Source: a virus (Duplodnaviria > Caudoviricetes). From it: DNA of 45,436 nucleotides. The notes below the pieces were generated by a model. The model did no database searches, had not been told where the DNA came from, and worked only from the letters and a program-made list of their open reading frames with translations. The DNA lies in the IMG/VR virus record IMGVR_UViG_3300005805_006996, positions 1 to 45,436 of that record; one strand, written 5' to 3'. Positions 16,033 through 42,484 of this stretch are shown one piece after another. Both the position numbers and the translations under genes were made by a program. How positions within the stretch are numbered: position 1 is the stretch's first letter; each line of letters begins with the position of its first letter.

Positions 16033-16107
16033 GCGTTAGTAGCTAAGTGGCATAGCAGGAGCCTCTAAAACTCTATATCGCGGGTTCGATTCCCGCCTAA
16101 CGCACCA
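16033..16107 (+). tRNA. Amber suppressor tRNA (anticodon CUA)
   Basis: GCGTTAG/CTAACGC acceptor, D-arm GCTA/TAGC, loop CT-CTA-AA (16065-16067), T-arm GCGGG TTCGATT CCCGC, A73, encoded CCA; C31-A39 mismatch. Confidence 0.88.
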
Positions 16108-22357: not shown

Positions 22358-22911
22358 CAGTAGTGACAAGTATGCCACCAGTAACAGTAGGTGGAAATTG
22401 GTTAGATCAGGTTAAGGAAAGTATTCCTGATCATGCTAAGGATATTAAGTTAAACTTAGATGCAGTAATTAATCGCAGCGGACTAGATCCAGTAGATACA
22501 CATGCAATTGCATATACCGCTGCACTAGCAGCAGGTAACGGTGGACTTGCATTTGAAATCGAAATGAATAGTCCATTATTTTTACATGAGCCAGAACGTC
22601 TTGCAGCTAAAACAGCAGCAGCACTTATGGGTATGAATAACACTTACTATCCATTTGTTGAAATGACACAAGATGAAGCACTAAAAGGTCTGCCTCCTGG
22701 TTTACGTATGAATGCATATGCTACACACGGTGGTGTAAGTAAGAAGAAATTCGAAATGTATGCACTGGCTGCAAGTATTGTAGGTAAGTGCCACTTCTGT
22801 GTTAAGAATCACTATGATGTTCTAAAGAAAGAAGGCATGACAGTTCAAGAACTACAAATGGTCGGAAAAATTGCTAGCGTAATTAACGCCGTAGGAAAAG
22901 TGGCTATTTGA
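22354..22911 (+). CDS. ahpD: Alkylhydroperoxidase AhpD
   Basis: IPDHAKDIKLNL, MGMNNTYY, GLRMN, ASIVGKCHFCVKNH. Confidence 0.93.
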   Translation: MTVVTSMPPVTVGGNWLDQVKESIPDHAKDIKLNLDAVINRSGLDPVDTHAIAYTAALAAGNGGLAFEIEMNSPLFLHEPERLAAKTAAALMGMNNTYYPFVEMTQDEALKGLPPGLRMNAYATHGGVSKKKFEMYALAASIVGKCHFCVKNHYDVLKKEGMTVQELQMVGKIASVINAVGKVAI

Positions 22912-23452
22912 TACCTATAGTCATGTAACGATCATAACCGCTATCACTATAGCGTATAGGTAGTATACCAGAATAAATACCCACACTTAGTGGGTATTTT
23001 TCTAAGAAGCTTTCATAAGTTGGGCTAGGATTTTTAACTAGCCACGGTTCATTGGGGTCGGTGACGTTACTAGATTGGATACATACTAGTGTGTTGGGCG
23101 CTATGCTATCAAACCAAACGTCACTGTCCATGTGTTCTCCGCTGCAATTTATGACTACATCATATCCTTGAGAATTAAAAGTATTTGCGTCCGCACATTC
23201 TGATCGCTGAATACACTCAATATACCAATAACTACAAATTTTATTAGCAGTATCTACAGCAGACATATCTATGTCGATGCCGTGTATATGTCCATAATGA
23301 TTAGGTCTACGTGTAAGTAACATAAACCCTAAAACATTAATCCAACACCCCAGTATTGCTACACTAGATTGTTCTTTAATAAGTGGTTCTAATTTTTCAC
23401 ATAGCCAAATTTTACTACTGATTTGGCCATGGCTAAAGCTATCAAGATTCAT
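22904..23452 (-). CDS. Class I SAM-dependent methyltransferase-like
   Basis: DSFSHGQ..SKIWL, ILGCW, GIDID, VINCSGEHM, QS; probable start MNLDSF. Confidence 0.75.
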   Translation of the reverse strand: MNLDSFSHGQISSKIWLCEKLEPLIKEQSSVAILGCWINVLGFMLLTRRPNHYGHIHGIDIDMSAVDTANKICSYWYIECIQRSECADANTFNSQGYDVVINCSGEHMDSDVWFDSIAPNTLVCIQSSNVTDPNEPWLVKNPSPTYESFLEKYPLSVGIYSGILPIRYSDSGYDRYMTIGIK

Positions 23453-24038
23453 TAGTATATTTAAGTTGGTTCCAATCATACGAAAAGGAATCATCTAAGT
23501 TTTCGTATAGGACATATTGCTTTGTATATTGAATGTTTACAGCAAATTCTAATGTGTGCAAACCCTTAAATCCAAAATGATAATCTTTTCTATTGGGTCT
23601 ACGCTCCCCGAATCCCTTTCTAAACCACATATTAATTAAGTTTTTATTGTAGTCGTTAAATGTCAAGGCCATACATTTCAAATTATTATCGATTGCCCAA
23701 CGTCTTTCAAAAGGCAATAGATATTCTCTGGATATATTTTTGTTTCTATATTCTTTATCTATCCATGTTCTAGAACCAGCAATCAATACATCGTCGGAGA
23801 AACTAGAAACATAACACCCGCTACATGCAATTATGTTTTCATTGTGAAATAGAATATTAAATTGTCCGTTTTTAAAACGGTCACTATTATCCAATATATA
23901 AAGTAATGTGTTATTTTCGCCATCCAATGTCATATTACTATGCGCCGGCTGCTTTAATTCCATAGAGGCTTTAAGCAAGAACTGTAAAAACTTCTCACGT
24001 TCATCTGAATTTATATCGTAGTAATTTTTTATTAGCAT
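23442..24038 (-). CDS. GNAT-like hypothetical protein
   Basis: IIACSG...RTWIDKEYRNKNIS resembles the acetyl-CoA-binding motif A. Confidence 0.5.
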   Translation of the reverse strand: MLIKNYYDINSDEREKFLQFLLKASMELKQPAHSNMTLDGENNTLLYILDNSDRFKNGQFNILFHNENIIACSGCYVSSFSDDVLIAGSRTWIDKEYRNKNISREYLLPFERRWAIDNNLKCMALTFNDYNKNLINMWFRKGFGERRPNRKDYHFGFKGLHTLEFAVNIQYTKQYVLYENLDDSFSYDWNQLKYTNES

Positions 24039-24568
24039 AATAGTATGTGATCTTTTGGGTTATGTTCAAATCTCATAGTGAAAATCCATCTATCCTCATT
24101 TATATTAGATTCTGCGCTATGTGGTTTGTCTACTCTGATTAGGTATGGTTTTGTAATCTCTAAACTTTCTACACATATAGGTTCCCCCTTCCATACTACA
24201 GAATAAAAAATTATATCACGTACATTGGTTTTTATCAATTCATATTCTCCGTCGTACCAATTAAACTTTGAACCAATAGTCCCGCTCAGTGGAATATTTA
24301 TAGCTAGAGATATTAGTTCGCTATCTCCGTCAACATGAATACCCTGTTTTGTGTTTTTTCTTCTTATATAACTTTGAGCATAGGACAATTTGGGCAATCC
24401 TAAATTATATAAATCATTGTTTATCGTGTTTAGTAGATTTCCTGAAATATTGTGTTTGATTCTAACCTGTTCTGAAAAGGTACTGTTCAATTTCTTTTTG
24501 ATATCTTCTATAGCGAATTCTTGTATATTAGTATAGCAAGGTAGCTCAACAGGATAGTAATATTTCAT
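24032..24568 (-). CDS. 2OG-Fe(II)/cupin-like oxygenase
   Basis: HVD...PH..N..RW pattern. Confidence 0.65.
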   Translation of the reverse strand: MKYYYPVELPCYTNIQEFAIEDIKKKLNSTFSEQVRIKHNISGNLLNTINNDLYNLGLPKLSYAQSYIRRKNTKQGIHVDGDSELISLAINIPLSGTIGSKFNWYDGEYELIKTNVRDIIFYSVVWKGEPICVESLEITKPYLIRVDKPHSAESNINEDRWIFTMRFEHNPKDHILLC

Positions 24569-25161
24569 ATATTGATACAATGTTCCTTATACTTGTCTGC
24601 ACCACAACTAATTAGTTTTGATATGTCCCCCATGTAATTGATTTGTATCAATAACTTTTTATTATTAGAGTCAAAGTCGCTACCGTGCCAACAATGCAAA
24701 TCATTATATGTGAACCACATTGTATCAATTGGCATGGTCATATAGTGTCTAGTCGTGTCATTTGGTTTAGTGTAGTACCATTGGTTCTGCGCAGGATAGT
24801 GAAGCATACCACGTATTTCCCATTTATCAATATTATTGTCTGAATGGGATTCTATGTTAGTCAAGCTTTGTACTATTCTAATACGTTTTATAACAGGAAT
24901 AGGTAAGCTCATCAACCCTTCATAAAATTTAGGTAAATCGTTTTTGATATCGTAATACGGTGCTTCGTGAGCAACAGATCCGTATCTGAGCATAATGTCT
25001 AACCCTACCCATAGATCAGTTGATCCTACAGGACTCTTTGAATCTGTATGATTTACTTTTTTCTTGTATAACACTTTTGCATGTTTATTCCAAATATTCC
25101 AAAAAGTGTCCCAAGAATCGGGATAAATATTGGGCAAATCTAATGGACTATGTATTAGCAT
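24565..25161 (-). CDS. 2OG-Fe(II)/cupin-like oxygenase
   Basis: HSD...WHG...K pattern. Confidence 0.55.
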   Translation of the reverse strand: MLIHSPLDLPNIYPDSWDTFWNIWNKHAKVLYKKKVNHTDSKSPVGSTDLWVGLDIMLRYGSVAHEAPYYDIKNDLPKFYEGLMSLPIPVIKRIRIVQSLTNIESHSDNNIDKWEIRGMLHYPAQNQWYYTKPNDTTRHYMTMPIDTMWFTYNDLHCWHGSDFDSNNKKLLIQINYMGDISKLISCGADKYKEHCINI

Positions 25162-25170
25162 ATAAATAGT

Positions 25171-25947
25171 ATGATGAAATATTTATCAGCGTCCAATAAG
25201 ACTTTAGGGTTCCTAAACTCATTAATACTATTAGGTACCATATATGGGACAATTACCTATGAATTTACGATTCCATATATCCTGCTGACCATACTTTTTT
25301 ATTTTATTTTTAGTGGGTTAGGTGTAGGAATGATGCTACATAGATATTATAGCCACGGCAGTTTTGAATTTAAATCTGATGTTCTGAGAAAAGTTTTAAC
25401 CTATGTAAGTTTGCTATCTGCAAGGGGTAGTATAATAGGTTGGGTCTATGTTCACAGGATGCACCACAAACACAGCGATACAGAGAATGATCCTCATATT
25501 AGGAACATGAAAATTCTTAACTTATTGTTTCCTTATTTTTCCGATCACGGGAAGAGTATCAATAAATTTGTGATAAAAGACTTATTGAACCAAGAACAAT
25601 TAAAGATTAACCAACATTACATGGCTATCGTATTGCTTCCCGTGGCAGTTCTGTCCATTGTCAGTTTTAAAATTGCCTTCTTTTGCTGGTTTTTGCCAGT
25701 ATTTCTTACACATGTAATTTGGAACATTTTCTTTTGGTTAGGCCATCACGAAAAATTTGGATATCGAAATTTTGCTACATCGGACAAGAGTTCTAATTCA
25801 TGGCTATTTGCTATATTGACATTTGGTGAAGGGTGGCACAATAACCATCATCAACAACCAAAGAGTTACACAACTAAAGTACATAAACATGAATTTGACT
25901 TAATTGGTTCTATCATTCTGTTATTGCGAAAAACACAGACTAAATAA
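25171..25947 (+). CDS. Membrane fatty-acid (delta-9-type) desaturase
   Basis: His boxes HRYYSH, HRMHH, GEGWHNNHH; TM segments. Confidence 0.93.
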   Translation: MMKYLSASNKTLGFLNSLILLGTIYGTITYEFTIPYILLTILFYFIFSGLGVGMMLHRYYSHGSFEFKSDVLRKVLTYVSLLSARGSIIGWVYVHRMHHKHSDTENDPHIRNMKILNLLFPYFSDHGKSINKFVIKDLLNQEQLKINQHYMAIVLLPVAVLSIVSFKIAFFCWFLPVFLTHVIWNIFFWLGHHEKFGYRNFATSDKSSNSWLFAILTFGEGWHNNHHQQPKSYTTKVHKHEFDLIGSIILLLRKTQTK

Positions 25948-25951
25948 TTTC

Positions 25952-26749
25952 ATGACTAATATATTTGCAAGTTCAACTATCGGGGCACAGCGTTTTCAAT
26001 TAATAGCGTTATTGTGTACGCTTTTTGGGTTATTTTATTATGCCCCATCACTGGAAATGTTATTACTAGTTCTTACCGGATACTTTATCTACGGTTGTCT
26101 AGGTATCGTAGTAACATTTCACAGATTGCTTACGCACGGTAGTTATGAAACTAATAAGTATTTAAGTCGTTTATTTTCTATATTTGGATGTTTTGCGGGT
26201 ACAGGTAGTCCTATAGCTTGGGTCGCAATTCATATAAATCATCATCTTAAAAGTGATAAAGAAGGTGATCCTCATAGCCCATGGTTCAAAGGTTTCAAGA
26301 TATTCACGCTAGATTACGAACATGAAGTAGACAAGAATACCAAATGGAGAATGAGGCATTTGATTACTGATAAGTTCCAACAAGCATTACATAGGTACTA
26401 TTTCTTAATTATGTTTGCTTATGGATTTCTTTTATTCCTAATAGGTGGATTTTATTTATTGACGTTTTTCTTTTTAGCTCCTGCATTGGTTACTGGTTTA
26501 ATGAGTAACGTAGTGAATTATGTTGGGCACATGCCGCATTGGTTTGGAAGTTCTAGAACTTACAACCTAGCAGATAAAAGTGCAAACAATTGGTTATGGG
26601 CTATCCCTAGTTGGGGTGAGGCATGGCACAATAATCATCACCGTTATCCCAGACGAAGTTACTTCGGTGATAAATGGTATCAGATTGACATATCAGGGGT
26701 TATCATAAAACTTATAAGGACGAAAAGTGATAGTTACGTCAGAGAATAA
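25952..26749 (+). CDS. Membrane fatty-acid (delta-9-type) desaturase
   Basis: HRLLTH, HINHH..SD..GDPHSP, GEAWHNNHH. Confidence 0.93.
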   Translation: MTNIFASSTIGAQRFQLIALLCTLFGLFYYAPSLEMLLLVLTGYFIYGCLGIVVTFHRLLTHGSYETNKYLSRLFSIFGCFAGTGSPIAWVAIHINHHLKSDKEGDPHSPWFKGFKIFTLDYEHEVDKNTKWRMRHLITDKFQQALHRYYFLIMFAYGFLLFLIGGFYLLTFFFLAPALVTGLMSNVVNYVGHMPHWFGSSRTYNLADKSANNWLWAIPSWGEAWHNNHHRYPRRSYFGDKWYQIDISGVIIKLIRTKSDSYVRE

Positions 26750-27668
26750 CTATTTTCAATGGTTTTATGAGGATGAATTATTTGCTAGAAAACCATTTGA
26801 AGATTCTAAATTGAAAATCAAATATAACGCAAAAGTTGAAAATTTTGGTTCTTTTAAAGAAGAATTAATCAATAATGCCAATAAGCTTATAGACTTATAC
26901 CCTAACAGGAAGTTTTCTATTTTACTCTCGGGTGGCAGTGAGAGTGAAACTATGATTAGATTATACCGATCACAAAATATTGACTTTACAGCATATATTT
27001 TTAGATATGAAAAAGATATTAATTTATATGATGTGAGCTATGCAATCAGCGCAGCAGAGAGTATCGGCGCCACCTACAAGGTTATTGACTTCAATCTAAC
27101 ACAGTTTTATGAAAGTGGTGATGCAGAGAAAATTAGTGAAATAGCTCAGATTGACAGACCCCGCGCTTTACCTCAATTAAAATTTTTAGATTATATCACA
27201 GATAATTCTGTAGTATTGGGTGGGCAAGGAGCTACGGCATGGCGTAGACCTGGCGACATAGACTATACCATAAAATCTATTTGGGTAGATGTATACGACG
27301 AATTTGAAATAGGATGGGATAGGTATGTTAAAGAAACAAATCGTGAGGCATGCCTAACATGGTTACGATATTCTCCGCAGCTTGTGTTGGCACATAATTC
27401 TACTGATTGGGCAAAAAAATTAAGATCCGACGGTATTATAGGAAAGACGGGAGTCAAGAGTACAAAATTACAAGGTTACCAAGAAGTTTTTCCCGAAATG
27501 CTGCAAAGAATTAAAAAACATGGAATGGAACCTGCAGATGATATTATAAATGAATATCAAGAATTTTTGATTAAAAAATATAACGGTTTACCTTTTAGAG
27601 GGTATGCGGAAAAAACTTGGAATGAAATATGTCAAGAATTACTCGGAAAACAAGCATCATATCAATAA
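26727..27668 (+). CDS. Adenine-nucleotide alpha-hydrolase (PP-loop)-like protein
   Basis: LLSGGSESE variant PP-loop; late RIKKHGME motif. Confidence 0.6.
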   Translation: MIVTSENNYFQWFYEDELFARKPFEDSKLKIKYNAKVENFGSFKEELINNANKLIDLYPNRKFSILLSGGSESETMIRLYRSQNIDFTAYIFRYEKDINLYDVSYAISAAESIGATYKVIDFNLTQFYESGDAEKISEIAQIDRPRALPQLKFLDYITDNSVVLGGQGATAWRRPGDIDYTIKSIWVDVYDEFEIGWDRYVKETNREACLTWLRYSPQLVLAHNSTDWAKKLRSDGIIGKTGVKSTKLQGYQEVFPEMLQRIKKHGMEPADDIINEYQEFLIKKYNGLPFRGYAEKTWNEICQELLGKQASYQ

Positions 27669-27669
27669 A

Positions 27670-28857
27670 ATGTTATTAGACTGCCACACAACATTAGGTC
27701 ACTATTCTGTTGGTGACAAAAAATTTACATATAAGAATTCTGCCATCTATGAGGCAATGAACACAAATCAAAGTGTACAGTGGCACTTTTTTGATGATGT
27801 TTGGCAAAAATTCACAGACACTAAATTGCATACATTGGGAAGAGAATCACTTAAATCTGTATATAGACGCAGAGCCCAACAGTTGCGTGATGAATATGAT
27901 TATCTTATTCTACACTATAGCGGTGGTAGCGATAGTCATGAAATACTTATGACGTTTTTAGAAAACAACATAAAACTGGACGAAATCCTCGTTCAATTAG
28001 CATTAACAGCAAAAGAAAAAGTTCACACCCCGAACAATATAGACAAATCTGCTTCTAATATATTGAGCGAATGGGATTATGCTATAAAACCCGTATTAGA
28101 TATTGTAAAACAAAAGTATCCTAATATTAAAATAACTATAAGCGATTATTTAAATGACTACGGTAAGAAATTTGAAACACTTTTAACAGAAGATATTTAC
28201 CTAAACAATTATCATTTTAACACTACATTAGAAATGCTCAGGGCGCATTTTGCTACAAGTGATACTTTGGTAATCGGAAATGTAAAAAACAAAAAGGTCG
28301 CGGAGGTTATAGGGATAGACAAGCCATTGGTCTTTCTGAAAGACAACAAATTCTATATGACTTTTTGCGATACTTTTGCTAGTATAATTCATCCGGTTAG
28401 GTATCAAAAATGGGGAGCTACTCCAGAACCGTTTTATTGGAGCCCCAAAATGCCAGAGCTTTGTTTTGAGCAGGCTTATGTGTTATTGAACTATTTTGAA
28501 ACAAGACCCGATCTAAGACATATATACGATTCATCATTGTTCAGTGCAATGGATTCAAACTATCGTCACCGTAAAGAAATTTCTAGGAAGATATTCTATC
28601 AGACAATATACCATTATTTTGATAGTAACACATTTCAAGTTGATAAGCCTGAACCTTATTCAAATCACGGGGCCAGTAGAGAAAAGTATTTTGTGAATAT
28701 ACCTGAATTTAAGCCGTATTTAGAGAAAGTAGACTTTTATATTAGTAGCTTTGTAAAAGCCTTTAAGGAAAAGGACTTTATGAGTGAGTCTAAATTTAAG
28801 AAACAGTATTTTTCAAAATGGTTTTATATAGGAGAATTTTCCCCTATTATACAATGA
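27670..28857 (+). CDS. PP-loop ATPase-like protein (paralog 1)
   Basis: RAQQLRDEYDYLILHYSGGSDS, GIDKP, FQVDKP. Confidence 0.7.
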   Translation: MLLDCHTTLGHYSVGDKKFTYKNSAIYEAMNTNQSVQWHFFDDVWQKFTDTKLHTLGRESLKSVYRRRAQQLRDEYDYLILHYSGGSDSHEILMTFLENNIKLDEILVQLALTAKEKVHTPNNIDKSASNILSEWDYAIKPVLDIVKQKYPNIKITISDYLNDYGKKFETLLTEDIYLNNYHFNTTLEMLRAHFATSDTLVIGNVKNKKVAEVIGIDKPLVFLKDNKFYMTFCDTFASIIHPVRYQKWGATPEPFYWSPKMPELCFEQAYVLLNYFETRPDLRHIYDSSLFSAMDSNYRHRKEISRKIFYQTIYHYFDSNTFQVDKPEPYSNHGASREKYFVNIPEFKPYLEKVDFYISSFVKAFKEKDFMSESKFKKQYFSKWFYIGEFSPIIQ

Positions 28858-29143
28858 TTTCTCTTTTCATTGTAATACCTACAGATTCATGATAGGCTTG
28901 ACGTTCTTGAAACATTGGAAAAATCTCTGGGTCACTACAAAAATCAATCCAGTCCGCTTCAGTTCCAAAATAAGTTGTTCGTACTTGCACTAACCCGTCA
29001 GGAGAATCTACAATAGAAGCGTAAATGATTTTATTAGTATCCTTATAAGCCGTTTGCACGTGTTGGTTAAATTCGTTTGTGTATTCAAAAAACGGAATAG
29101 ATGTGCTAGGTCTTGTATAAGTGTTTTTGTAAGCGTATGCCAT
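28847..29143 (-). CDS. Small hypothetical protein
   Basis: AGGAG RBS and two TAAATA motifs upstream on the minus strand. Confidence 0.7.
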   Translation of the reverse strand: MAYAYKNTYTRPSTSIPFFEYTNEFNQHVQTAYKDTNKIIYASIVDSPDGLVQVRTTYFGTEADWIDFCSDPEIFPMFQERQAYHESVGITMKREIIV

Positions 29144-29221
29144 TCTGAATGATCTCCTGTTGTACTATATTTATCTATATATTTATAATTTAGTGCGGTA
29201 GAATAACTAAATATTTACACT

Positions 29222-30430
29222 ATGATACATGAAAAATCTCTTGCAAATAGGGTTTCTTACCAAAGGAACAGCGGTTATTGGGAAGTAGACAATAAGTACT
29301 TTTTCAATAAAGCCGAATGTCTACGACATGCTACTAAGACAGGAAATGGTAATATCAAGTATCATTTTTTTGATGAAGTTTTTTCCGAGTCGGACTGGTC
29401 TATAGAGCCTCCGCAGTCATTGGATCAATTATACGGTGAAAGAGCCAGACAATTAAGAGATAAGTATGATTATATTTTGCTATCTGTAAGCGGCGGTTCT
29501 GATAGCATGAACATGTTATACGCCTTTTTAAATAATGGGCTTCATGTAGATGAAGTTGTAACGTGGTATCCGGTCGCTGCTATAGAAAAACTGATTAGCA
29601 CATTTAATTACGACAAAAAAGATCCTACAAATGTTATGTTTGAATATGTTACTGCTTTCATGCCACAAATGAAAGAAGTTCATAAAAAGTATCCAAACTT
29701 AAAAATAACGATACTAGATCATACAGATCATGCATTAACTGTTATAGGTGGTGCAAACGCACATAAATTTGATATGGCAGGATTGACAATGGGACCGGGT
29801 ACTGCCGGCCCATTGAGTTTAGTTGGATACCAGCGAAAACTTGATATACCTAATTCTGCTATTATTGTGGGGGTAGATAAACCTAGACTAGTGTTATGCC
29901 CCAAAACAAAAAGATTTGGTAATTTCTTTTTAGATTTTCATTCAATGTGGGGAGGTGTAAGTGATGCGATCTATGGTGGATTTCACCCTACAGTTGAGTA
30001 TTTCTACTTTGCTTGGGAATTTCCAAATCTGATTAAAAAACAATCACATGTAGTTAAACAGGCAGTCCAACCATTAATCGAAGGTGAAAAAGGTATCGAT
30101 TCTCCTGAATATACAAAATTACTAATATCCAAGCGTAAGAATTCTCCATACGACATATTCAACGTACAACTAGATTTCTTTGAGAAATTGTTATACCCCA
30201 CTACGTACAATCCAAACGTGTTTCAAGCAGCCAAACCAACCTCGTTATTATATGCTGAAGCAAACAAATGGTTCACTGATTCTCACTTGACTGACGACAA
30301 AACTAAATCATTTTATACTGGACAAATTGATGAATTTGTTGCCGGCATACACTCTGGATATTTGTATCTCAACAAGCAAGGTCGTGTGGGTGGGTTTAAG
30401 CCTTTTAACTCGCCTATTAAATTCTTTTAA
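29222..30430 (+). CDS. PP-loop ATPase-like protein (paralog 2)
   Basis: RARQLRDKYDYILLSVSGGSDS, GVDKPR, FQAAKP. Confidence 0.7.
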   Translation: MIHEKSLANRVSYQRNSGYWEVDNKYFFNKAECLRHATKTGNGNIKYHFFDEVFSESDWSIEPPQSLDQLYGERARQLRDKYDYILLSVSGGSDSMNMLYAFLNNGLHVDEVVTWYPVAAIEKLISTFNYDKKDPTNVMFEYVTAFMPQMKEVHKKYPNLKITILDHTDHALTVIGGANAHKFDMAGLTMGPGTAGPLSLVGYQRKLDIPNSAIIVGVDKPRLVLCPKTKRFGNFFLDFHSMWGGVSDAIYGGFHPTVEYFYFAWEFPNLIKKQSHVVKQAVQPLIEGEKGIDSPEYTKLLISKRKNSPYDIFNVQLDFFEKLLYPTTYNPNVFQAAKPTSLLYAEANKWFTDSHLTDDKTKSFYTGQIDEFVAGIHSGYLYLNKQGRVGGFKPFNSPIKFF

Positions 30431-31032
30431 AAAACGATGTATTGCGGGTACTTGAGTATAAATTGATCAAACGTAATTTCATAAAAACTCAACGTAAACA
30501 TTATACGTCTGTTTTCTACGTTTTCAATGCTATGCGCCCTACGAACACTTAATCCATACCATTTGTTCATTTCAAAGTGTGCAGTATAGTGAGGTTCTAC
30601 CTCTTCATACTGCCATCTTTTTCCTGTACCTTTACCAGGAGTATGGTCTATCATTTGTTTGTAAAAAACTGTAGTAACATTGTCTCCACCTTCTTTGTAA
30701 TAGTAATTCATAGCAAAAATTCTTTCTCTATCGCTATGAGGTGGCCAACATGCATATTTAGAATTTGAATCTACATTAGTCAATATTCCTACTACGGGAA
30801 AAATTTCTTCATCAAAATACGGTTGATATTGTTCTCTACCTAACTTGATTACAACATCATCTTCTTTTTCATACTGTCGTGATACAGCATTGACAGGTTG
30901 ATTTTGAAACCTCTCATGATGCCCCTTAAAAACTGCGTCAATTGGAGCTCCGTATGCACATCTTAGAATTTCTCTTTCCAAATCAGGATTTGGTCTAGGC
31001 AAATTCATTTCAAAAATAGAGTCATTTATCAT
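30427..31032 (-). CDS. 2OG-Fe(II)/cupin-like oxygenase
   Basis: PHSD...AHSIEN..RRIMFTLSF. Confidence 0.65.
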   Translation of the reverse strand: MINDSIFEMNLPRPNPDLEREILRCAYGAPIDAVFKGHHERFQNQPVNAVSRQYEKEDDVVIKLGREQYQPYFDEEIFPVVGILTNVDSNSKYACWPPHSDRERIFAMNYYYKEGGDNVTTVFYKQMIDHTPGKGTGKRWQYEEVEPHYTAHFEMNKWYGLSVRRAHSIENVENRRIMFTLSFYEITFDQFILKYPQYIVF

Positions 31033-31040
31033 AGAAGTAT

Positions 31041-32249
31041 TTAGTTGTTTATATGAATGGGTGTAGTTGTAAACTGTTTGAACCTAAGTGGTAAACCGTT
31101 TTCATTATATTCGATCAAACTACTGTCAATACCGTGTAAGAACTCCATCACTTGACCATAGTGGTAATCTTTTGCTCTTTTATCTGTTAATTTTGATTTT
31201 AGATACCAATTGCTATGTTCTTGAAAAAAGTATCCTGAAGGTTTTCCTGCTTGAAAGAAAATTGCTGACCAATCTTTGTATAGTAATTTTTTGAAGAATA
31301 TATCATGTGTGTAAAATACGTAATGATTGTTTTTAGAAATTTTAGTGAACCTGTTAAAGAAATCAGGACGTTTTTCTTTAGGTAAATCTACGTAGGGCTG
31401 CAATGCACGTTTTATAATAGCTAGTTGTTTTTGCCAAATGCTTGGCATCTCCATGGTATAGTAAAAATGTTCTACCAGTGGGTTATATCCACTAAAAGCA
31501 TCCTTCCTATAATTCCCTAGCACTAAAGAGATATCGTCAAAATATGTTCCATATTTTTTACTGTTTGGGTTGTATCCGAATCGAGGCTTATCAACTCCAG
31601 TAAGATATACTGCTTTACCTTTGTTAGCATATTCCCTGACCTTCTCTCCAATTAAGTAATGACCTGCTAGTCCGGGAGCAGCACCGATACCACCAACCGG
31701 CATAAGATGTAACTTACCGTTGCCCAACATATCAATGGCAGTGTTAGTATGGTCTAATACTGCTATTTCTGTTTTAGGTGATTTTTTAGACACTTCTAAA
31801 AGTTTTGGCAACGCAACTTCAGAGTATTCAAATATTACGTTACCAGCACTACGATCATTTTTATTAAAGTATGGTTTTAATTTGTCAATGGCTGCGACAG
31901 GATAGGAAGTAGCTACACAATCTAAATGTATGCCGTTATTGATAAATGTGTTCAATACGTTATAGCTATCACTGCCACCGCTAAACGACAAAATAATATA
32001 ATCGTATTTCTCTCTTAATTGTTTGGCTCGCTGAACATAAAGTTCCTCTAAAGACTCTTTAGGTTCAGTGTGCCATTGTAACGAGTTATAAAATTCATCA
32101 TTGTAATGAAAAGTAATATTATGATCTTTTATAGTAGTGGCATATCGCAAGCATTCGGATTTGTCAAAAAAGTACTTTCCTCCTACTTGCCAATAACCGC
32201 CACCGTATGATCCTGCAATCTGTTTGGCTAAACTTTCTTCAGAGACCAT
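31041..32249 (-). CDS. PP-loop ATPase-like protein (paralog 3)
   Basis: RAKQLREKYDYIILSFSGGSDS, GVDKPR, FQAGKP; clearly similar to 29222-30430. Confidence 0.7.
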   Translation of the reverse strand: MVSEESLAKQIAGSYGGGYWQVGGKYFFDKSECLRYATTIKDHNITFHYNDEFYNSLQWHTEPKESLEELYVQRAKQLREKYDYIILSFSGGSDSYNVLNTFINNGIHLDCVATSYPVAAIDKLKPYFNKNDRSAGNVIFEYSEVALPKLLEVSKKSPKTEIAVLDHTNTAIDMLGNGKLHLMPVGGIGAAPGLAGHYLIGEKVREYANKGKAVYLTGVDKPRFGYNPNSKKYGTYFDDISLVLGNYRKDAFSGYNPLVEHFYYTMEMPSIWQKQLAIIKRALQPYVDLPKEKRPDFFNRFTKISKNNHYVFYTHDIFFKKLLYKDWSAIFFQAGKPSGYFFQEHSNWYLKSKLTDKRAKDYHYGQVMEFLHGIDSSLIEYNENGLPLRFKQFTTTPIHINN

Positions 32250-33057
32250 ATTTTTTCATGAAGCCTACATATTGTCCAAACAGTTTATCTTTTTCTTTTC
32301 CACCTATGTTTAATGGAGTTACTTTTAAAGAATTAAGAGTTTCTTTATACAACGGTGTCGTAACAGCATCTTCAATGCATTTCATCGCTTTAGCCTTTTG
32401 TTCAGCAGTAGCATCTTTGTGTACAAACATTCCATTAAATGCTACACTAGTTAACGATATTTGTCCCCTTTTAAACTCTTCACCTAAGGCAATCGTGAAT
32501 ATTGTTTTAAAATTAAAATCTCTACTCCAATTAAATCCGTTAGTGCTACTTACGAGATACACATCTAAATCCTTGTTCATAATCAATGGTAATGCTTTGG
32601 CATCGCCACCTGTAGGTATGATGTTTATATTTGGATTTACTTCTTGTAATTGTAATGCTAATACGTGATGTGATGTACCTAAGCCTGGTATACCCAAGTT
32701 AATTTTTTCAGTGACCAGTTGTTGCCAAGTAACATCTTTGTTTGTAAGTGCATATAGCGGAGCACTTAACACAATCTTTAACAATTCAATAGGTGGATTT
32801 TTGATTGGACTATTGTTACCAAATGCAGCAGGACTTCCGAAAAAGATGAAGTCTTTGTTTTCTTCAAGATGCCTGACTGCTATCGCCGACATTCCACCTA
32901 TTTTATACTCTAAAACTTTAAAATTAGGGTTAGCTTTCATCATTAGTCGAGCTTGGGTGTCTAATGCGCCACCGGGTGGATAGTCTATAACCATTTTACA
33001 AGTTTCTGCGTGTGCAACGTTTATTGCTAAAATTAATGCTAATATGTATTTTACCAT
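32239..33057 (-). CDS. TctC/Bug-like periplasmic solute-binding protein
   Basis: Signal peptide MVKYILALILAINVAHA, YPPGGALDTQAR, GIPGLGTSHH; AAAGGA RBS. Confidence 0.75.
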   Translation of the reverse strand: MVKYILALILAINVAHAETCKMVIDYPPGGALDTQARLMMKANPNFKVLEYKIGGMSAIAVRHLEENKDFIFFGSPAAFGNNSPIKNPPIELLKIVLSAPLYALTNKDVTWQQLVTEKINLGIPGLGTSHHVLALQLQEVNPNINIIPTGGDAKALPLIMNKDLDVYLVSSTNGFNWSRDFNFKTIFTIALGEEFKRGQISLTSVAFNGMFVHKDATAEQKAKAMKCIEDAVTTPLYKETLNSLKVTPLNIGGKEKDKLFGQYVGFMKKYGL

Positions 33058-33111
33058 GCGTGGTTCCTTTATGTATAAATATTTAATATATAATTGGGTA
33101 ATACAAAAAAA

Positions 33112-34167
33112 ATGATCATCGACTGCGATAGCCACTATCTACCGTTAGACGTTTACAAGTACGTAAGTGAACGCTACAAAAAATATCTTCCTACATATAC
33201 GTATGTAGATGGTGTTCCTAAGATTACGGGATCTGATCCTATTAAACAGCACGATAACCCTTATGAATTTAACAGACACTGTGATTTACCCGGTGTAACC
33301 GATATACCTTCTAGACTAGAAGATATGGAAAAAATGCAAGTTAATATGCAGGTATTGGCGCCTCAAGACTTAGCATTACGTTTTAATTATAGTGTCGATC
33401 CTGATCTTGCAGCAGAAATGTGTCATAGTTATAATTTGTCATTGTTAAATTTAGATAGAAACAAATTTATCCTTGTGGGTTACGCTCCGTTGCAATCTAT
33501 AGAATCATCAATAAAAGAAGTAGAATGGCTACACAGTGTGGGTATCAATCAAATTTATGTGGATTTTGCAATACCCAACTCGGAAACAAAATTGTGTGGA
33601 TTGTGGAGAACAGTTAAAGATATAGACAAATTTTTAAAAGTAGTAGAAGCCAATGGCATGATTCTCTATGCACATCATTTTATGCATAGTCTTAAGCTTA
33701 ATCCAGAACAGTTTATAGATAAGCGATTGCCTGTTGATTTTATTAATGGCTTCATATCTGATTTTACATTGGGTGGTCTATTGCATAAGTTTCCCGATTT
33801 AAAAATTGTTTTGGCAGAATCTCCTAAGCTGGGAGCAGAATTGGTTAAGACTTTAGGTTTATGCATTCAACTATATGAAGAAGGAAACTTCGAAGGTGCT
33901 CACCCAAATGTTTACTACAAAAAAAATTTCTATGCTACAATTGATATTGAAGCTGAAGAAGTCGTTGAAAACTTCATCAAGTACTTTGGTGAAGATAAAG
34001 TTTTGTTCAGCACCGACTATCCGCACATAGACCCTTCGGGGATGAATAAATGGAATGATACAGAAGACCTAAAAAAATCTAAGTTGAACAGTATTACAAA
34101 AGAAAAAATAGCATACAAAAATGCAGTAGAATTGTTTAATTTAAATTTTGGGCAAACACAAATTTGA
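33112..34167 (+). CDS. Amidohydrolase-2 family protein (ACMSD/LigW-like)
   Basis: IIDCDSH, RLEDM, LLHKFPDLKIVLAE, LFSTDYPH. Confidence 0.85.
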   Translation: MIIDCDSHYLPLDVYKYVSERYKKYLPTYTYVDGVPKITGSDPIKQHDNPYEFNRHCDLPGVTDIPSRLEDMEKMQVNMQVLAPQDLALRFNYSVDPDLAAEMCHSYNLSLLNLDRNKFILVGYAPLQSIESSIKEVEWLHSVGINQIYVDFAIPNSETKLCGLWRTVKDIDKFLKVVEANGMILYAHHFMHSLKLNPEQFIDKRLPVDFINGFISDFTLGGLLHKFPDLKIVLAESPKLGAELVKTLGLCIQLYEEGNFEGAHPNVYYKKNFYATIDIEAEEVVENFIKYFGEDKVLFSTDYPHIDPSGMNKWNDTEDLKKSKLNSITKEKIAYKNAVELFNLNFGQTQI

Positions 34168-34229: not shown

Positions 34230-34367
34230 ATGAAAAACTTTACTTGTAACGCTATACTAAAACATGAGGCATTATGGTCCATTACAGCCATGAATACCTT
34301 TGCGCCAGTATATCCTACAAGTATCCGTGGCTCAAACGATCAAAGAGGCAGCCCGGGGACTAGGTAA
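34230..34367 (+). CDS. Putative attenuator leader peptide (45 aa, all 20 amino acids)
   Basis: MKNFTCNAILKHEALWSITAMNTFAPVYPTSIRGSNDQRGSPGTR*; 37 distinct codons; its 3' end lies inside the antiterminator arm. Confidence 0.7.
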   Translation: MKNFTCNAILKHEALWSITAMNTFAPVYPTSIRGSNDQRGSPGTR

Positions 34368-34402
34368 AGTCTAACATAGTACAGATTTATCTAACCCCTG
34401 GG
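34352..34402 (+). promoter_or_regulatory. Antiterminator hairpin (competes with terminator)
   Basis: CCCGGGGACTAGGTAAAGTCT (34352-72) pairs with AGATTTATCTAACCCCTGGG (34383-402), sequestering the terminator 5' arm. Confidence 0.7.
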
Positions 34403-34431
34403 AAACTAAAAAGTCTCAGGGGTTTTTGTTT
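34393..34431 (+). terminator. Intrinsic terminator (attenuator) before tRNA array
   Basis: AACCCCTGGG(AA)ACT-AAAA-AGTCTCAGGGGTT followed by TTTGTTT. Confidence 0.85.
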
Positions 34432-34447
34432 AGTGCTTTAGAAAAAT

Positions 34448-34476
34448 TTGACAATAAATGGAGAACAGATTAGAAT
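34448..34476 (+). promoter_or_regulatory. sigma70 promoter (copy 1 of direct repeat)
   Basis: TTGACA-ATAAATGGAGAACAGAT-TAGAAT. Confidence 0.8.
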
Positions 34477-34538
34477 GAGGATCTTTGACAGATTGGATCA
34501 ACATTCAAGTCTGCAAAAAAACAGAGACAAAAAATATT

Positions 34539-34567
34539 TTGACAATAAATGGAGAACAGTTTAGAAT
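34539..34567 (+). promoter_or_regulatory. sigma70 promoter (copy 2 of direct repeat)
   Basis: TTGACA-ATAAATGGAGAACAGTT-TAGAAT; 28/29 identical to copy 1. Confidence 0.8.
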
Positions 34568-34712
34568 ACGCAACTCAAGAATTTACAGATTGGTCAGAGC
34601 ATGTATATCTGACTTCAGAGCAAGTCGAGCAATTGATTGCCGAGAAGTTTGAACGTGCAAGGATTCAATCATTGGCTACTAAGCATCTACGAGAACAAGT
34701 GGATGTGTAGCA

Positions 34713-34928
34713 AAGTGTGTAGGCAACGCGGGCCAAGCGGCGCACTTAAAACATGTCGTGAAAGGGCGGACTGTAGGATGAAGCCTCTCTTGTGAGGTGA
34801 AAAATTACAGGCTAGGGTACAACCCTAGCATAGCGTAGAAATACGCTATTCTATAGTATACTGATGAAAATACGCCCATGGCTTTTGGCGCCATGACTAG
34901 CCCTCTAGTGTACTATAGAATAGTGTAT
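34713..34928 (+). ncRNA. Structured leader RNA of tRNA array (unassigned)
   Basis: Several hairpins (GCTAGGGT/ACCCTAGC; ATAGCGTA/TACGCTAT) and a 22-bp stem 34841-62/34907-28 ending at the tRNA-Gln 5' end. Confidence 0.5.
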
Positions 34929-35003
34929 AGCCCGTTCGCCAAGTGGTAAGGCATCGGATTTTGATTCCGACATTCGGTGGTTCGAATCCATCACGGGCTG
35001 CCA
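34929..35003 (+). tRNA. tRNA-Gln(TTG)
   Basis: Full cloverleaf, loop TT-TTG-AT, G73, CCA. Confidence 0.93.
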
Positions 35004-35946: not shown

Positions 35947-36006
35947 AGGATGCTAACAGCAAATTTTAACATCAAACTGCTAATTTGAAACGTTAAAATG
36001 CATCCT
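35947..36006 (+). ncRNA. Scaffolded anticodon-arm RNA 1 (Ser GCU)
   Basis: AGGATGC/GCATCCT stem, TAACAGCAA, inner stem, TCAAA CT-GCT-AA TTTGA. Confidence 0.7.
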
Positions 36007-36017
36007 GTTATATCTGT

Positions 36018-36264: not shown

Positions 36265-36293
36265 TTGACAATAAATCCATTGTCATGTACAAT
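36265..36293 (+). promoter_or_regulatory. sigma70 promoter
   Basis: TTGACA-ATAAATCCATTGTCATG-TACAAT. Confidence 0.8.
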
Positions 36294-36324
36294 GCTTGCA
36301 TACGCTGAGAAATCAGCAATGCTC

Positions 36325-36520
36325 TTTAAAAGTTAATAGTAGGTTCTGTCTCTTGAAAAAGAGAACGGTAACGAAACGACAGCCAGCAGTTCTTAGTAAG
36401 TCAATGCGACTGAAAAGAGGGTGTCTTAGTAGAGAGGTGAATCCCCGTAGGGGATTTGTGATAAAGCCCTGGAGGCCTAAGCATGTAATGTGAGAAATCA
36501 TCCTACTGTCAATTTTTAAA
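36325..36520 (+). ncRNA. Unassigned ~195-nt structured RNA
   Basis: 19-bp closing stem 36325-43/36502-20; internal hairpins TCTCTT/AAGAGA, AGTC/GACT, AATCCCC/GGGGATT. Confidence 0.55.
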
Positions 36521-36589
36521 AGTTTGTTCTTTAATAAAGTGTGTATAAAGCGTGGGTTCTCAAAGAACCTCTGTGCAGAGAACATCTGT

Positions 36590-36663
36590 CCCGACACTAA
36601 TAGCGCCTGATGAGAGAGTAACGCCTCGAAACCATTTGGTAGCGCGGAGTGGCAACAGTCGGG
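36590..36663 (+). ncRNA. Type I hammerhead ribozyme within a 17-bp-stem-closed RNA (36540-36702)
   Basis: Stem I GCGC/GCGC, core CTGATGA (36607-13), stem II GAG/CTC, GAAA (36628-31), stem III ACC/GGT, GUA cleavage triplet ending 36641. Confidence 0.8.
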
Positions 36664-36706
36664 GAATAACGGTGCCACCAGGAGGTTCACGCTTTATGCA
36701 CATTTT

Positions 36707-36781
36707 ACACCGTGAGGCAGCTGGTGTGGCCGCTAGTCCTTCAAACTAGTGAGATGGGATCAAAACCCATACGGTGTACCA
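36707..36781 (+). tRNA. tRNA-Glu(TTC)-like, atypical (C33, A73)
   Basis: CTAGT CC-TTC-AA ACTAG, T-loop ATCAAAA, CCA. Confidence 0.65.
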
Positions 36782-38041: not shown

Positions 38042-38101
38042 AGGATGCTAACTGCAAATACAAGCATTTCACTGATAATGAAACCAAGCTCAATGCATCC
38101 T
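38042..38101 (+). ncRNA. Scaffolded anticodon-arm RNA 2 (Ile GAU)
   Basis: AGGATGC/GCATCCT, TAACTGCAA, TTTCA CT-GAT-AA TGAAA. Confidence 0.7.
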
Positions 38102-38112
38102 GTTATTTCAAT

Positions 38113-38280: not shown

Positions 38281-38358
38281 GCGGGTAGATTGCGGCAAGG
38301 GGCGCCCAGCAGTCTTCCAAACTGATAATGCGGAGTTCGACTCTCCCTACCCGCTCCA
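38281..38358 (+). tRNA. tRNA-Gly(TCC), irregular D-arm
   Basis: GCGGGTA acceptor, U73, loop CT-TCC-AA, CCA. Confidence 0.8.
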
Positions 38359-38363
38359 CTTTT

Positions 38364-38423
38364 AGGATGCTAACTGCAAAATTATTTTTTTACTTTTATT
38401 GGAAAAAGCAAAAAATGCATCCT
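38364..38423 (+). ncRNA. Scaffolded anticodon-arm RNA 3 (Lys UUU)
   Basis: AGGATGC/GCATCCT, TAACTGCAA, TTTTA CT-TTT-AT TGGAA (two G-U pairs). Confidence 0.6.
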
Positions 38424-38433
38424 GTTATATATC

Positions 38434-38509
38434 GCTGATGTGGCACAGTCGGTAGCGCATTTCCTTGGTAAGGAAAAGGTCGCCGGTTCGATCCCGGCCA
38501 TCAGCACCA
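38434..38509 (+). tRNA. tRNA-Thr(GGT)
   Basis: Canonical cloverleaf, loop TT-GGT-AA, CCA. Confidence 0.93.
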
Positions 38510-38515
38510 ATTTAT

Positions 38516-38591
38516 GCCTAGTTGGAGTGAGAGGTTAACCGGCATCCTTACAAGATGTCTTATGCTGGTTCGAGTCCAGCACTAGGTACCA
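38516..38591 (+). tRNA. tRNA-Val(TAC)
   Basis: Loop CT-TAC-AA, weak D-arm, CCA. Confidence 0.8.
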
Positions 38592-38596
38592 GTTAG

Positions 38597-38705
38597 GGGA
38601 TACTCACAGCAAAACTATCCAAACGATAGGTTACTGGTTCGATTCCAGTATTACGCACATGCGTGATTAGCTCATAGGTAGAGCATTCGTCAAGAATAGT
38701 ATCCC
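38597..38705 (+). ncRNA. Circularly permuted tRNA (Gly-like) in CAGCAA scaffold
   Basis: Order is TCC-AA, anticodon 3' strand ACGAT, AGGTT, T-arm, acceptor 3' ATTACGC, ACAT linker, acceptor 5' GCGTGAT, TA, D-arm, A, TTCGT; closed by GGGATACT/AGTATCCC. Confidence 0.75.
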
Positions 38706-38714
38706 GTTTTATTT

Positions 38715-38842
38715 GGAGATGTGATGTAATGGTAGCATAGCACAGCAAAAACCGTATTCTGTTTTAGCATACGTGCAGCAACTCTATAGCTATCCCTCTG
38801 TAAAAGGGCTTGTCCGTGGTTCGAATCCCGGCGTCTCCACCA
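38715..38842 (+). tRNA. tRNA-Tyr(GTA)-like gene with ~53-nt insertion in the anticodon stem
   Basis: GGAGATG/CGTCTCC, D-arm, GC|insert with CAGCAA twice|CCT CT-GTA-AA AGGGC, T-arm, CCA. Confidence 0.6.
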
Positions 38843-38850
38843 AACACATT

Positions 38851-38926
38851 GTCCGGTTAGTTCAGCGGTATGAACGCTACCCTGACACGGTAGAGGTCAC
38901 TGGTTCGATCCCAGTACTGGACACCA
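38851..38926 (+). tRNA. tRNA-Val(GAC)
   Basis: Canonical cloverleaf, loop CT-GAC-AC, CCA. Confidence 0.93.
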
Positions 38927-40795: not shown

Positions 40796-40903
40796 AGGAT
40801 GCACACAGCAAAACTTTAATGCCACCAACAATTTCGGCATGCCGTGCAAGTGGGCACCGTGGTTGAAATAGGGGTTCGATTCCCGGCTATACCACAGCAT
40901 CCT
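40796..40903 (+). ncRNA. Scaffold RNA 5 carrying T-arm/D-loop-like modules
   Basis: AGGATGC/GCATCCT, ACACAGCAA, hairpins TGCC/GGCA (x2, one with a GCAAGTG loop) and GGG TTCGATT CCC. Confidence 0.6.
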
Positions 40904-40916
40904 GTTTTACTACATT

Positions 40917-42283: not shown

Positions 42284-42286
42284 ATA

Positions 42287-42484
42287 ATTCAACATCCGAC
42301 CTAACGCAGGAAACTGAGGAAGTTCGGGACTTGTGGCAAGTGCGAGTAGGAGCGAAAGCGTTAATACTACCTTGATATAACAAGCAACACAAACAGAACT
42401 AGGCAACACTTGCGCTATTAGTTCGGGTTGTGGCAAAGACGAATGTTAGGATTGAAACAGAATCCCGGCTATGAGATGTTGAAT
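42287..42484 (+). ncRNA. rnpB: Minimal RNase P RNA
   Basis: P1 ATTCAACATC/GATGTTGAAT; P2 CCTAACG/TGTTAGG; P3 CAG-GAAA-CTG; CR-I GAGGAAGTTCGGG pairing with CR-V ACAGAATCCCGGCTA (P4 with bulged U); CR-IV AGACGAATG. Confidence 0.85.

Follow-up and report, generated by a model that had tools for sequence, protein, structure and literature searches.

The final 11 kb of a 45,436-nucleotide phage fragment (hereafter the window; its record is rated 13% complete) contain a tRNA array, and ARAGORN places 23 genes in the window as a whole. An element at 38597–38706, flanked by tRNA-Val(UAC) on one side and the next tRNA-like gene on the other, receives no ARAGORN call; an earlier note had read it as a circularly permuted tRNA opened at the anticodon loop. 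Is this element a tRNA gene with its halves exchanged, or an RNA that imitates a tRNA without serving as one?

Architecture of the element and its relatives

The features of the element, preceded by one normal-order tRNA gene of the same array, are as follows; counts out of 36 refer to the aligned relatives described below.

38281–38358: tRNA-Gly(UCC) in normal order, its D arm unusual, with U73 and CCA; not called by ARAGORN and given a weak tRNA-clan Rfam match
38597–38612, + strand: handle, 5' side, with stem strand GGGATAC (7 nt), a 3-nt spacer and CAGCAA at 38607–38612
38615–38629, + strand: local hairpin CTATC-CAAAC-GATAG in the place of the anticodon arm (CTATC/GATAG in 30/36, CTAAC/GTTAG in 6/36)
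38633–38649, + strand: T arm ACTGG-TTCGATT-CCAGT, 5 bp, 100% paired with double changes at 2 pairs
38650–38667, + strand: acceptor-like 7-bp stem without CCA, strands 38650–38656 and 38661–38667, ACAT loop 38657–38660
38668–38685, + strand: U8-A9, D arm (38670–38684; GCTC/GAGC, with G18 and G19 in the loop) and A26
38686–38690, + strand: anticodon-like stem, 5' strand, pairing in trans with 38623–38627
38699–38706, + strand: handle, 3' side, with stem strand GTATCCC (38699–38705) and the next G

Sequence reading, a fold z of −5.6 (0/200 shuffles as good) and covariation bear out the earlier note in its claim that all tRNA arms are present, correctly spaced and in 3'-half-first order. It was likewise right that ACAT joins the acceptor strands, which are 7/7 paired (one G-U), and that a CAGCAA scaffold holds the element: the stem GGGATAC/GTATCCC (38597–38603/38699–38705) closes off all of its arms. 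The anticodon-like trans stem (38623–38627/38686–38690) forms 4 of 5 pairs, and the Levitt pair is T:T, a combination found in 4 of the 36 relatives (T:A in 25). The permuted arms exceed chance by fold z and by the Rfam match to YrlA given below. Among cultured phages, no record spans 80% of 38560–38860 by blastn, the best match (LR756501) being a mirror-topology sibling of the kind listed in the next section.

Contigs from RNA runs span the element unbroken in X1 (38434–38694, 4 differences) and X3 (38527–38746, none); X1 contigs also cover coding stretches, so DNA carry-over is possible. No joint inside the element is listed in six RNA runs (X1, X2, X3, X4, X7 and X14), whose contigs, at depth 3–4, drop rare forms and may let circular or ligated forms escape. 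Sigma-70-like sites at 36265 and 38931 flank the element, a weak observation given 23 such sites against 15.7 in shuffles.

A loose pattern of CAGCAA, T loop and D stem at the permuted spacing, demanding neither acceptor pairing nor a closing stem, matched 112 loci in bacterial and archaeal assemblies and 122 viral loci in 14 of the 64 parts of IMG/VR (an estimated ~550 in total). The viral matches make 112 distinct contexts; the acceptor is 6–7/7 paired in 100 of them, and 92 of these 100 elements, the window's included, have a closing stem of at least 7 pairs. Among distinct genome contexts, 54/100 have acceptor pairing as well as the closing stem.

A tighter pattern returned 49 loci that reduce to 37 distinct elements including the window's; 36 were aligned, L173 being left out because a contig end cuts its element. 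In the alignment, pairing reaches 96.3% and 12 pairs are doubly changed, exceeding all 500 shuffles, a count inflated by relatedness in that related phages among the loci keep the changes from being independent events; slid controls are paired only 33–48%. In the acceptor, both partners have changed at six of the seven pairs; this stem, 7/7 paired in 34/36, takes 19 different sequences, with a GCG start in 12. The handle stem is 100% paired with double changes at 2 pairs. The D stem, invariant and partly fixed by the set parsing, is uninformative on covariation.

The anticodon-like trans stem has 2 doubly changed pairs and 80% of cells paired (variants TTCG/CGAT, GACG/CGTT and GACA/TGTT), and it is mutually exclusive with the local hairpin, which also covaries in this 36-element subfamily and is predicted to be ~6 kcal/mol more stable in 36/36. 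The predicted probability of the trans stem against the hairpin is near zero, and the resting fold may therefore be something other than the full L shape. An intact anticodon loop is retained by 34 of 175 elements in the wider family, whose handle interrupts the anticodon stem in its 5' strand, so that an opening 'at the anticodon loop', as the earlier note had it, does not hold in general. Since no fixed break point is conserved, the PrrC-type cut site that it had brought in is without support.

A family of handle-bearing RNAs

The handle, a stem followed by NNN and CAGCAA, has 5 copies in the tRNA region of the window (shuffle mean 0.07) and none in window bases 1–34000. The siblings of the element in the array are:

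35947–36007, + strand: handle RNA with anticodon stem-loop CT-GCT-AA (Ser GCU)
38042–38102, + strand: handle RNA, CTGCAA variant, with 5-bp stem-loop CT-GAT-AA (Ile GAU), read by eye; the minimum-energy fold differs
38364–38424, + strand: handle RNA, CTGCAA variant, with stem-loop CT-TTT-AT (Lys UUU-like)
38715–38842, + strand: mirror-topology sibling, a normal-order tRNA body with a Tyr GUA-like arm and CCA end, its D and anticodon arms separated by the inserted handle
40796–40904, + strand: handle RNA with three-hairpin cargo including a T-loop-like sequence

The fetched loci yielded 594 distinct handle RNAs, of which 189 are permuted tRNA mimics, 114 have a T loop, 81 are short and bear a canonical anticodon stem-loop, and 210 are of other kinds. 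A canonical anticodon stem-loop is present in 81 of the 221 short handle RNAs, compared with 2.1 in shuffles, and its loops, canonical and of 7 nt, are enriched for TTT, TGT, GTT and TCT. Mirror-topology elements number 30, with CCA in 9. We hold with high confidence that the window element belongs to this family. Neither literature nor Rfam scans yielded a description of CAGCAA handle RNAs, although Burroughs and Aravind 2016 or the supplement of PMC7824862 may list such RNAs or already place DUF2828 with ROT/TROVE; the class is widespread and apparently unannotated, and the underlying Ro60/Y RNA concept is already known. If this reading is true, handle RNAs offer a reason for unannotated gaps in phage tRNA arrays.

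Several observations concern the array itself. The mirror-topology sibling has a second CAGCAA (38743–38748) directly after its D arm, as does the orthologue in L169. A 158-nt X1 contig (depth 3.4) runs from 38715 to 38841 and, after one extra C, starts again at 38715; the resulting cycle of 128 nt corresponds to this sibling with its tRNA-like ends joined and its insert retained, either a real circle or a library artefact; an X4 contig likewise begins at 38715. Long non-coding gaps of the array at 34330–34930, 36290–36700 and 42285–42470 have no Rfam match; they contain inverted repeats (for example 34841–34928 and 36535–36707), and RNA-run contigs cover part of the gap at 34330–34930.

The dictyostelid Class I RNAs (RF01414), as described in the available text of PMC7919456, resemble the handle RNAs in having a short terminal stem, an adjacent unpaired 11-nt motif, a CUGU-like end and a variable interior, but they are eukaryotic, ~60 nt long, driven by a DUSE promoter and bound, as far as that text names a binder, by an RRM protein. 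The motif positions T3, C6, C9, A10 and A11 are all matched in the window element and in 267 of the 594 handle RNAs, although the scan itself fixes C6, C9, A11 and nearly A10, leaving only T3 free (45%). A threshold of E ≤ 5 gives no RF01414 match in the window, and 20 loci have a single sub-threshold match (L085, 30.5 versus 41.5 bits). Because the scan fixes most motif positions and the Rfam scores fall below cut-off, the likeness is one of resemblance only.

A probable protein partner and a possible decoy role

In relatives of the element, a DUF2828/DUF7788 gene adjoins the handle RNA on the same strand. Its product is predicted to have the Ro60 fold, at 12–18% identity to solved Ro60s. The DUF2828 profile finds PDB sequences only at E ≥ 0.09, with TROVE at 0.21, and an Atlas feature search with DUF2828 leads to TROVE/Ro60 at 0.93, which we treat as a lead only. 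The gene is absent from the window's record (13% complete) and from 4 of 20 near-complete carriers, and three of seven loci found protein-first lack a credible handle RNA in the flanks fetched. DUF2828-type proteins occur in 706 of 50,697 cultured-phage records.

A member of the same protein family is gp130 of Bas63 (Felixounavirus), described in 10.1101/2024.10.10.617714 as a Ro60-like counter of the Ppl defence. Its authors noted the Ro60 fold and guessed at Y RNAs in the downstream tRNA stretch; the accessible portion of that study names no RNA as partner of gp130. We find four handle RNAs there (MZ501086.1, 82072–82907) in the gaps between annotated tRNAs, whereas the study suggested that some of the annotated tRNAs were themselves Y RNAs. 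A hypothetical ORF annotated in Bas63 (bas63_0137; locus L297, MZ501086.1 82748–82900) overlaps two of the handle RNAs in antisense orientation and was probably called in error. If the pairing is true, the missing RNA partners of the DUF2828 protein are supplied and the Ro60/Y RNA system extends to a second protein lineage, with test systems ready in Bas63 in E. coli K-12 and phage Finnry in M. smegmatis.

By analogy with Ro60, there is good reason to expect that the handle RNA is bound by the DUF2828 protein. We further consider it on balance likely that the permuted tRNA elbow on its handle is a Y-RNA-like tRNA mimic held by a DUF2828/DUF7788 protein rather than a decoding tRNA, which favours the 'mimic of tRNA shape' branch of the earlier note. 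The helices, the handle family, its varied cargo of tRNA parts and the DUF2828 linkage in relatives are direct observations, and a predicted course of events would lead on from them. The RNA would be co-transcribed with the tRNA array and freed as flanking tRNAs are processed; its handle would then be bound by the DUF2828 protein, as Ro60 sits on the terminal stem of a Y RNA; and the protected particle would show tRNA parts, elbows here and bare anticodon loops in siblings, that, in the infected cell, may engage or draw away host proteins of tRNA-directed defence or RNA decay.

Whether the particle acts as a decoy in this way is, in our judgement, about evenly poised. Lys(UUU) is a known anticodon-nuclease target, and the enrichment of sibling loops for TTT, TGT, GTT and TCT favours a decoy role. 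The Ppl result, in the available text of 10.1101/2024.10.10.617714, covers no more than the protein, and degradation of DNA is the activity that the authors propose for Ppl, so a tRNA decoy is not obviously called for in that case. More tentatively, and with less than even expectation, we suggest that DUF2828/DUF7788 could be a second Ro60 lineage with Y RNAs of its own, that large phages could employ it as a modular platform presenting selected tRNA parts (Lys, Thr, Asn and Arg anticodon loops, elbows and whole bodies) as decoys that resist nucleases and draw off tRNA-directed immunity, and that the handle may be the origin of the dictyostelid Class I RNAs.

Alternative interpretations

One alternative is that the RNA acts as a tether or gate (RYPER-like) linking the Ro60-fold protein to a host ligase or nuclease such as RtcB or PNPase, the tRNA fold serving mainly for stability. 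Tethering is an established Y RNA role in D. radiodurans (PMC4201824), the Ro60 of phage phiLo and its Yrl RNAs are described as forming a complex with host PNPase in the parts of PMC12135203 at hand, and RtcB-cluster genes occur in 16 of the 80 bacterial loci examined (L175–L254, not every one of which holds a true handle RNA). We nevertheless consider it unlikely, because a tether leaves the canonical 7-nt anticodon loops of the siblings unexplained and RtcB is found in only 3 of 32 phage records. The same bacterial loci contain WYL/WCX (13/80) and Band-7 (10/80) cluster genes, an RNA-repair-type neighbourhood.

Somewhat more doubtful, and compatible with protein binding, is the possibility that RNase P opens the acceptor loop and CCA is added, giving a two-piece, possibly chargeable tRNA-like molecule on the handle. 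Besides the 7-bp acceptor of 34/36 relatives, this would account for G1-C72 in 35/36, for T at −1 in 27/36 (494/607 among ordinary tRNAs of the same loci), which is partly chance because the loops are AT-rich, for the open acceptors and occasional CCA (9/30) of mirror-topology siblings, and for the N-CCA that starts 10 of 75 viral loops. A YrlA of M. smegmatis with a 7-bp acceptor is, by the account available in PMC4201824, cut there by RNase P and CCA-tailed, so that 'unchargeable', as the earlier note had put it, is likely but not certain. Yet the acceptor varies so freely (19 forms) that no synthetase identity is kept, CCA lies within the acceptor loop in 1 of 36 relatives, and the loops of the family are just 2–4 nt in 27 of 75.

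The element might instead be a genuine YrlA Y RNA whose partner is an Rsr of the TROVE family. YrlA (RF02553) is its best non-tRNA Rfam match (31.1 bits against a cut-off of 69; E 0.0064 window-wide), and all of 20 other loci score 28.7–49.9 bits, below the same cut-off. According to the available parts of PMC4201824, 10.1101/312249 and PMC12135203, YrlA with Ro60/Rsr shares the T arm, loop-closed acceptor and D arm in permuted order, a terminal stem with a conserved 5' motif, a Ro60-fold gene adjacent on the same strand, and occurrence in phages, at times in arrays (CcrColossus), and near rtcB in bacteria. The differences are these: the handle is a 7-bp stem, 3 nt and CAGCAA instead of GNCGAAN0-1G, the partner is DUF2828/DUF7788 instead of TROVE, and the cargo can be anything from a bare anticodon loop to an entire tRNA, in either of two topologies. 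The Rfam match leaves the handle region unmatched, GNCGAAN0-1G is found in none of the 594 handle RNAs, and no TROVE domain (PF05731) was detected among the 57 ORFs scanned in the window, whose record is 13% complete. A TROVE gene near a pattern match occurs in 1 of 30 carrier records, and the closing stem beside CAGCAA there has only 5 bp. Three published phage YrlA loci that we checked carry TROVE rather than DUF2828 and a different handle, without CAGCAA; the 22 phages of Table S2 of Chen et al. are listed by TROVE annotation. YrlA identity is thus largely refuted and very improbable. Judged by sequence, the handle element appears to act like YrlA, yet its Rfam score, its motif and the family of its partner all place it outside YrlA; the earlier note had overlooked both YrlA, the closest known family, and the protein partner.

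Two TROVE loci merit description in their own right. In L006 (record G017; 1067–2722), a permuted tRNA-like element that includes CAGCAA but not the tight handle is followed after ~280 nt by a true TROVE/Ro60 gene. DUF2828 is missing from this record, and the locus is a possible intermediate of the two systems. The TROVE-linked array of CcrColossus (L294; JX100810.1, 108500–109600) seems by eye to contain further repeated RNAs with a handle, beyond the three YrlAs of the 2014 list, including one with an intact-looking GTT anticodon loop.

The element is not a glycine tRNA. The letters that the earlier note had read as Gly(UCC), TCC-AA with a GCG/CGC acceptor, are there, and the arm spacings are correct, but the identity they implied does not hold: positions 34–36 take six triplets among the relatives (TCC 14, CAT 9, ATC 9, CAC 2, CTC 1 and AAC 1), the acceptor has its 19 forms, and the discriminator of the window element is A. 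Bacterial tRNA-Gly has U73. In the 5' half, 30/36 relatives have A and 4/36 have T at position 33, not a conserved U33. An ordinary Gly(TCC) is present at 11 of 33 kin loci, and the window's own array has its normal-order Gly(UCC) at 38281–38358. The ligase search that the earlier note had proposed for this genome was run on 32 carrier records and found RtcB in 3 and Rnl1 in 7. The permuted tRNA genes of algae and an archaeon, as outlined in the available text of 10.1101/312249, share the 3'-half-first order and the initially closed acceptor, but here no anticodon or break point is conserved and a handle takes the place of splice motifs. That the element is a tRNA-Gly(UCC) gene in permuted form which, like those of red algae, matures by being excised, ligated and opened is consequently hardly credible: Wang et al. 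raised processing of some YrlAs as a possibility (10.1101/312249), but the available text of that work reports no bacterial equivalent of the splicing endonuclease, RNA ligases occur in a minority of carriers, and A33, a variable acceptor and an ordinary Gly(UCC) in the same array all speak against it. We caution that phage permuted tRNA look-alikes should not be annotated as tRNA genes.

Outside the array, the stretch 22904–33135 contains several ORFs of 180–420 aa on alternating strands, some of near-equal length (~198 and ~402 aa), without a Pfam match. An isolated tRNA at 16033–16107 with a CUA (amber suppressor-type) anticodon, labelled Pyl by ARAGORN, lies among metabolic genes, and similar genes are present in L129 and L146.
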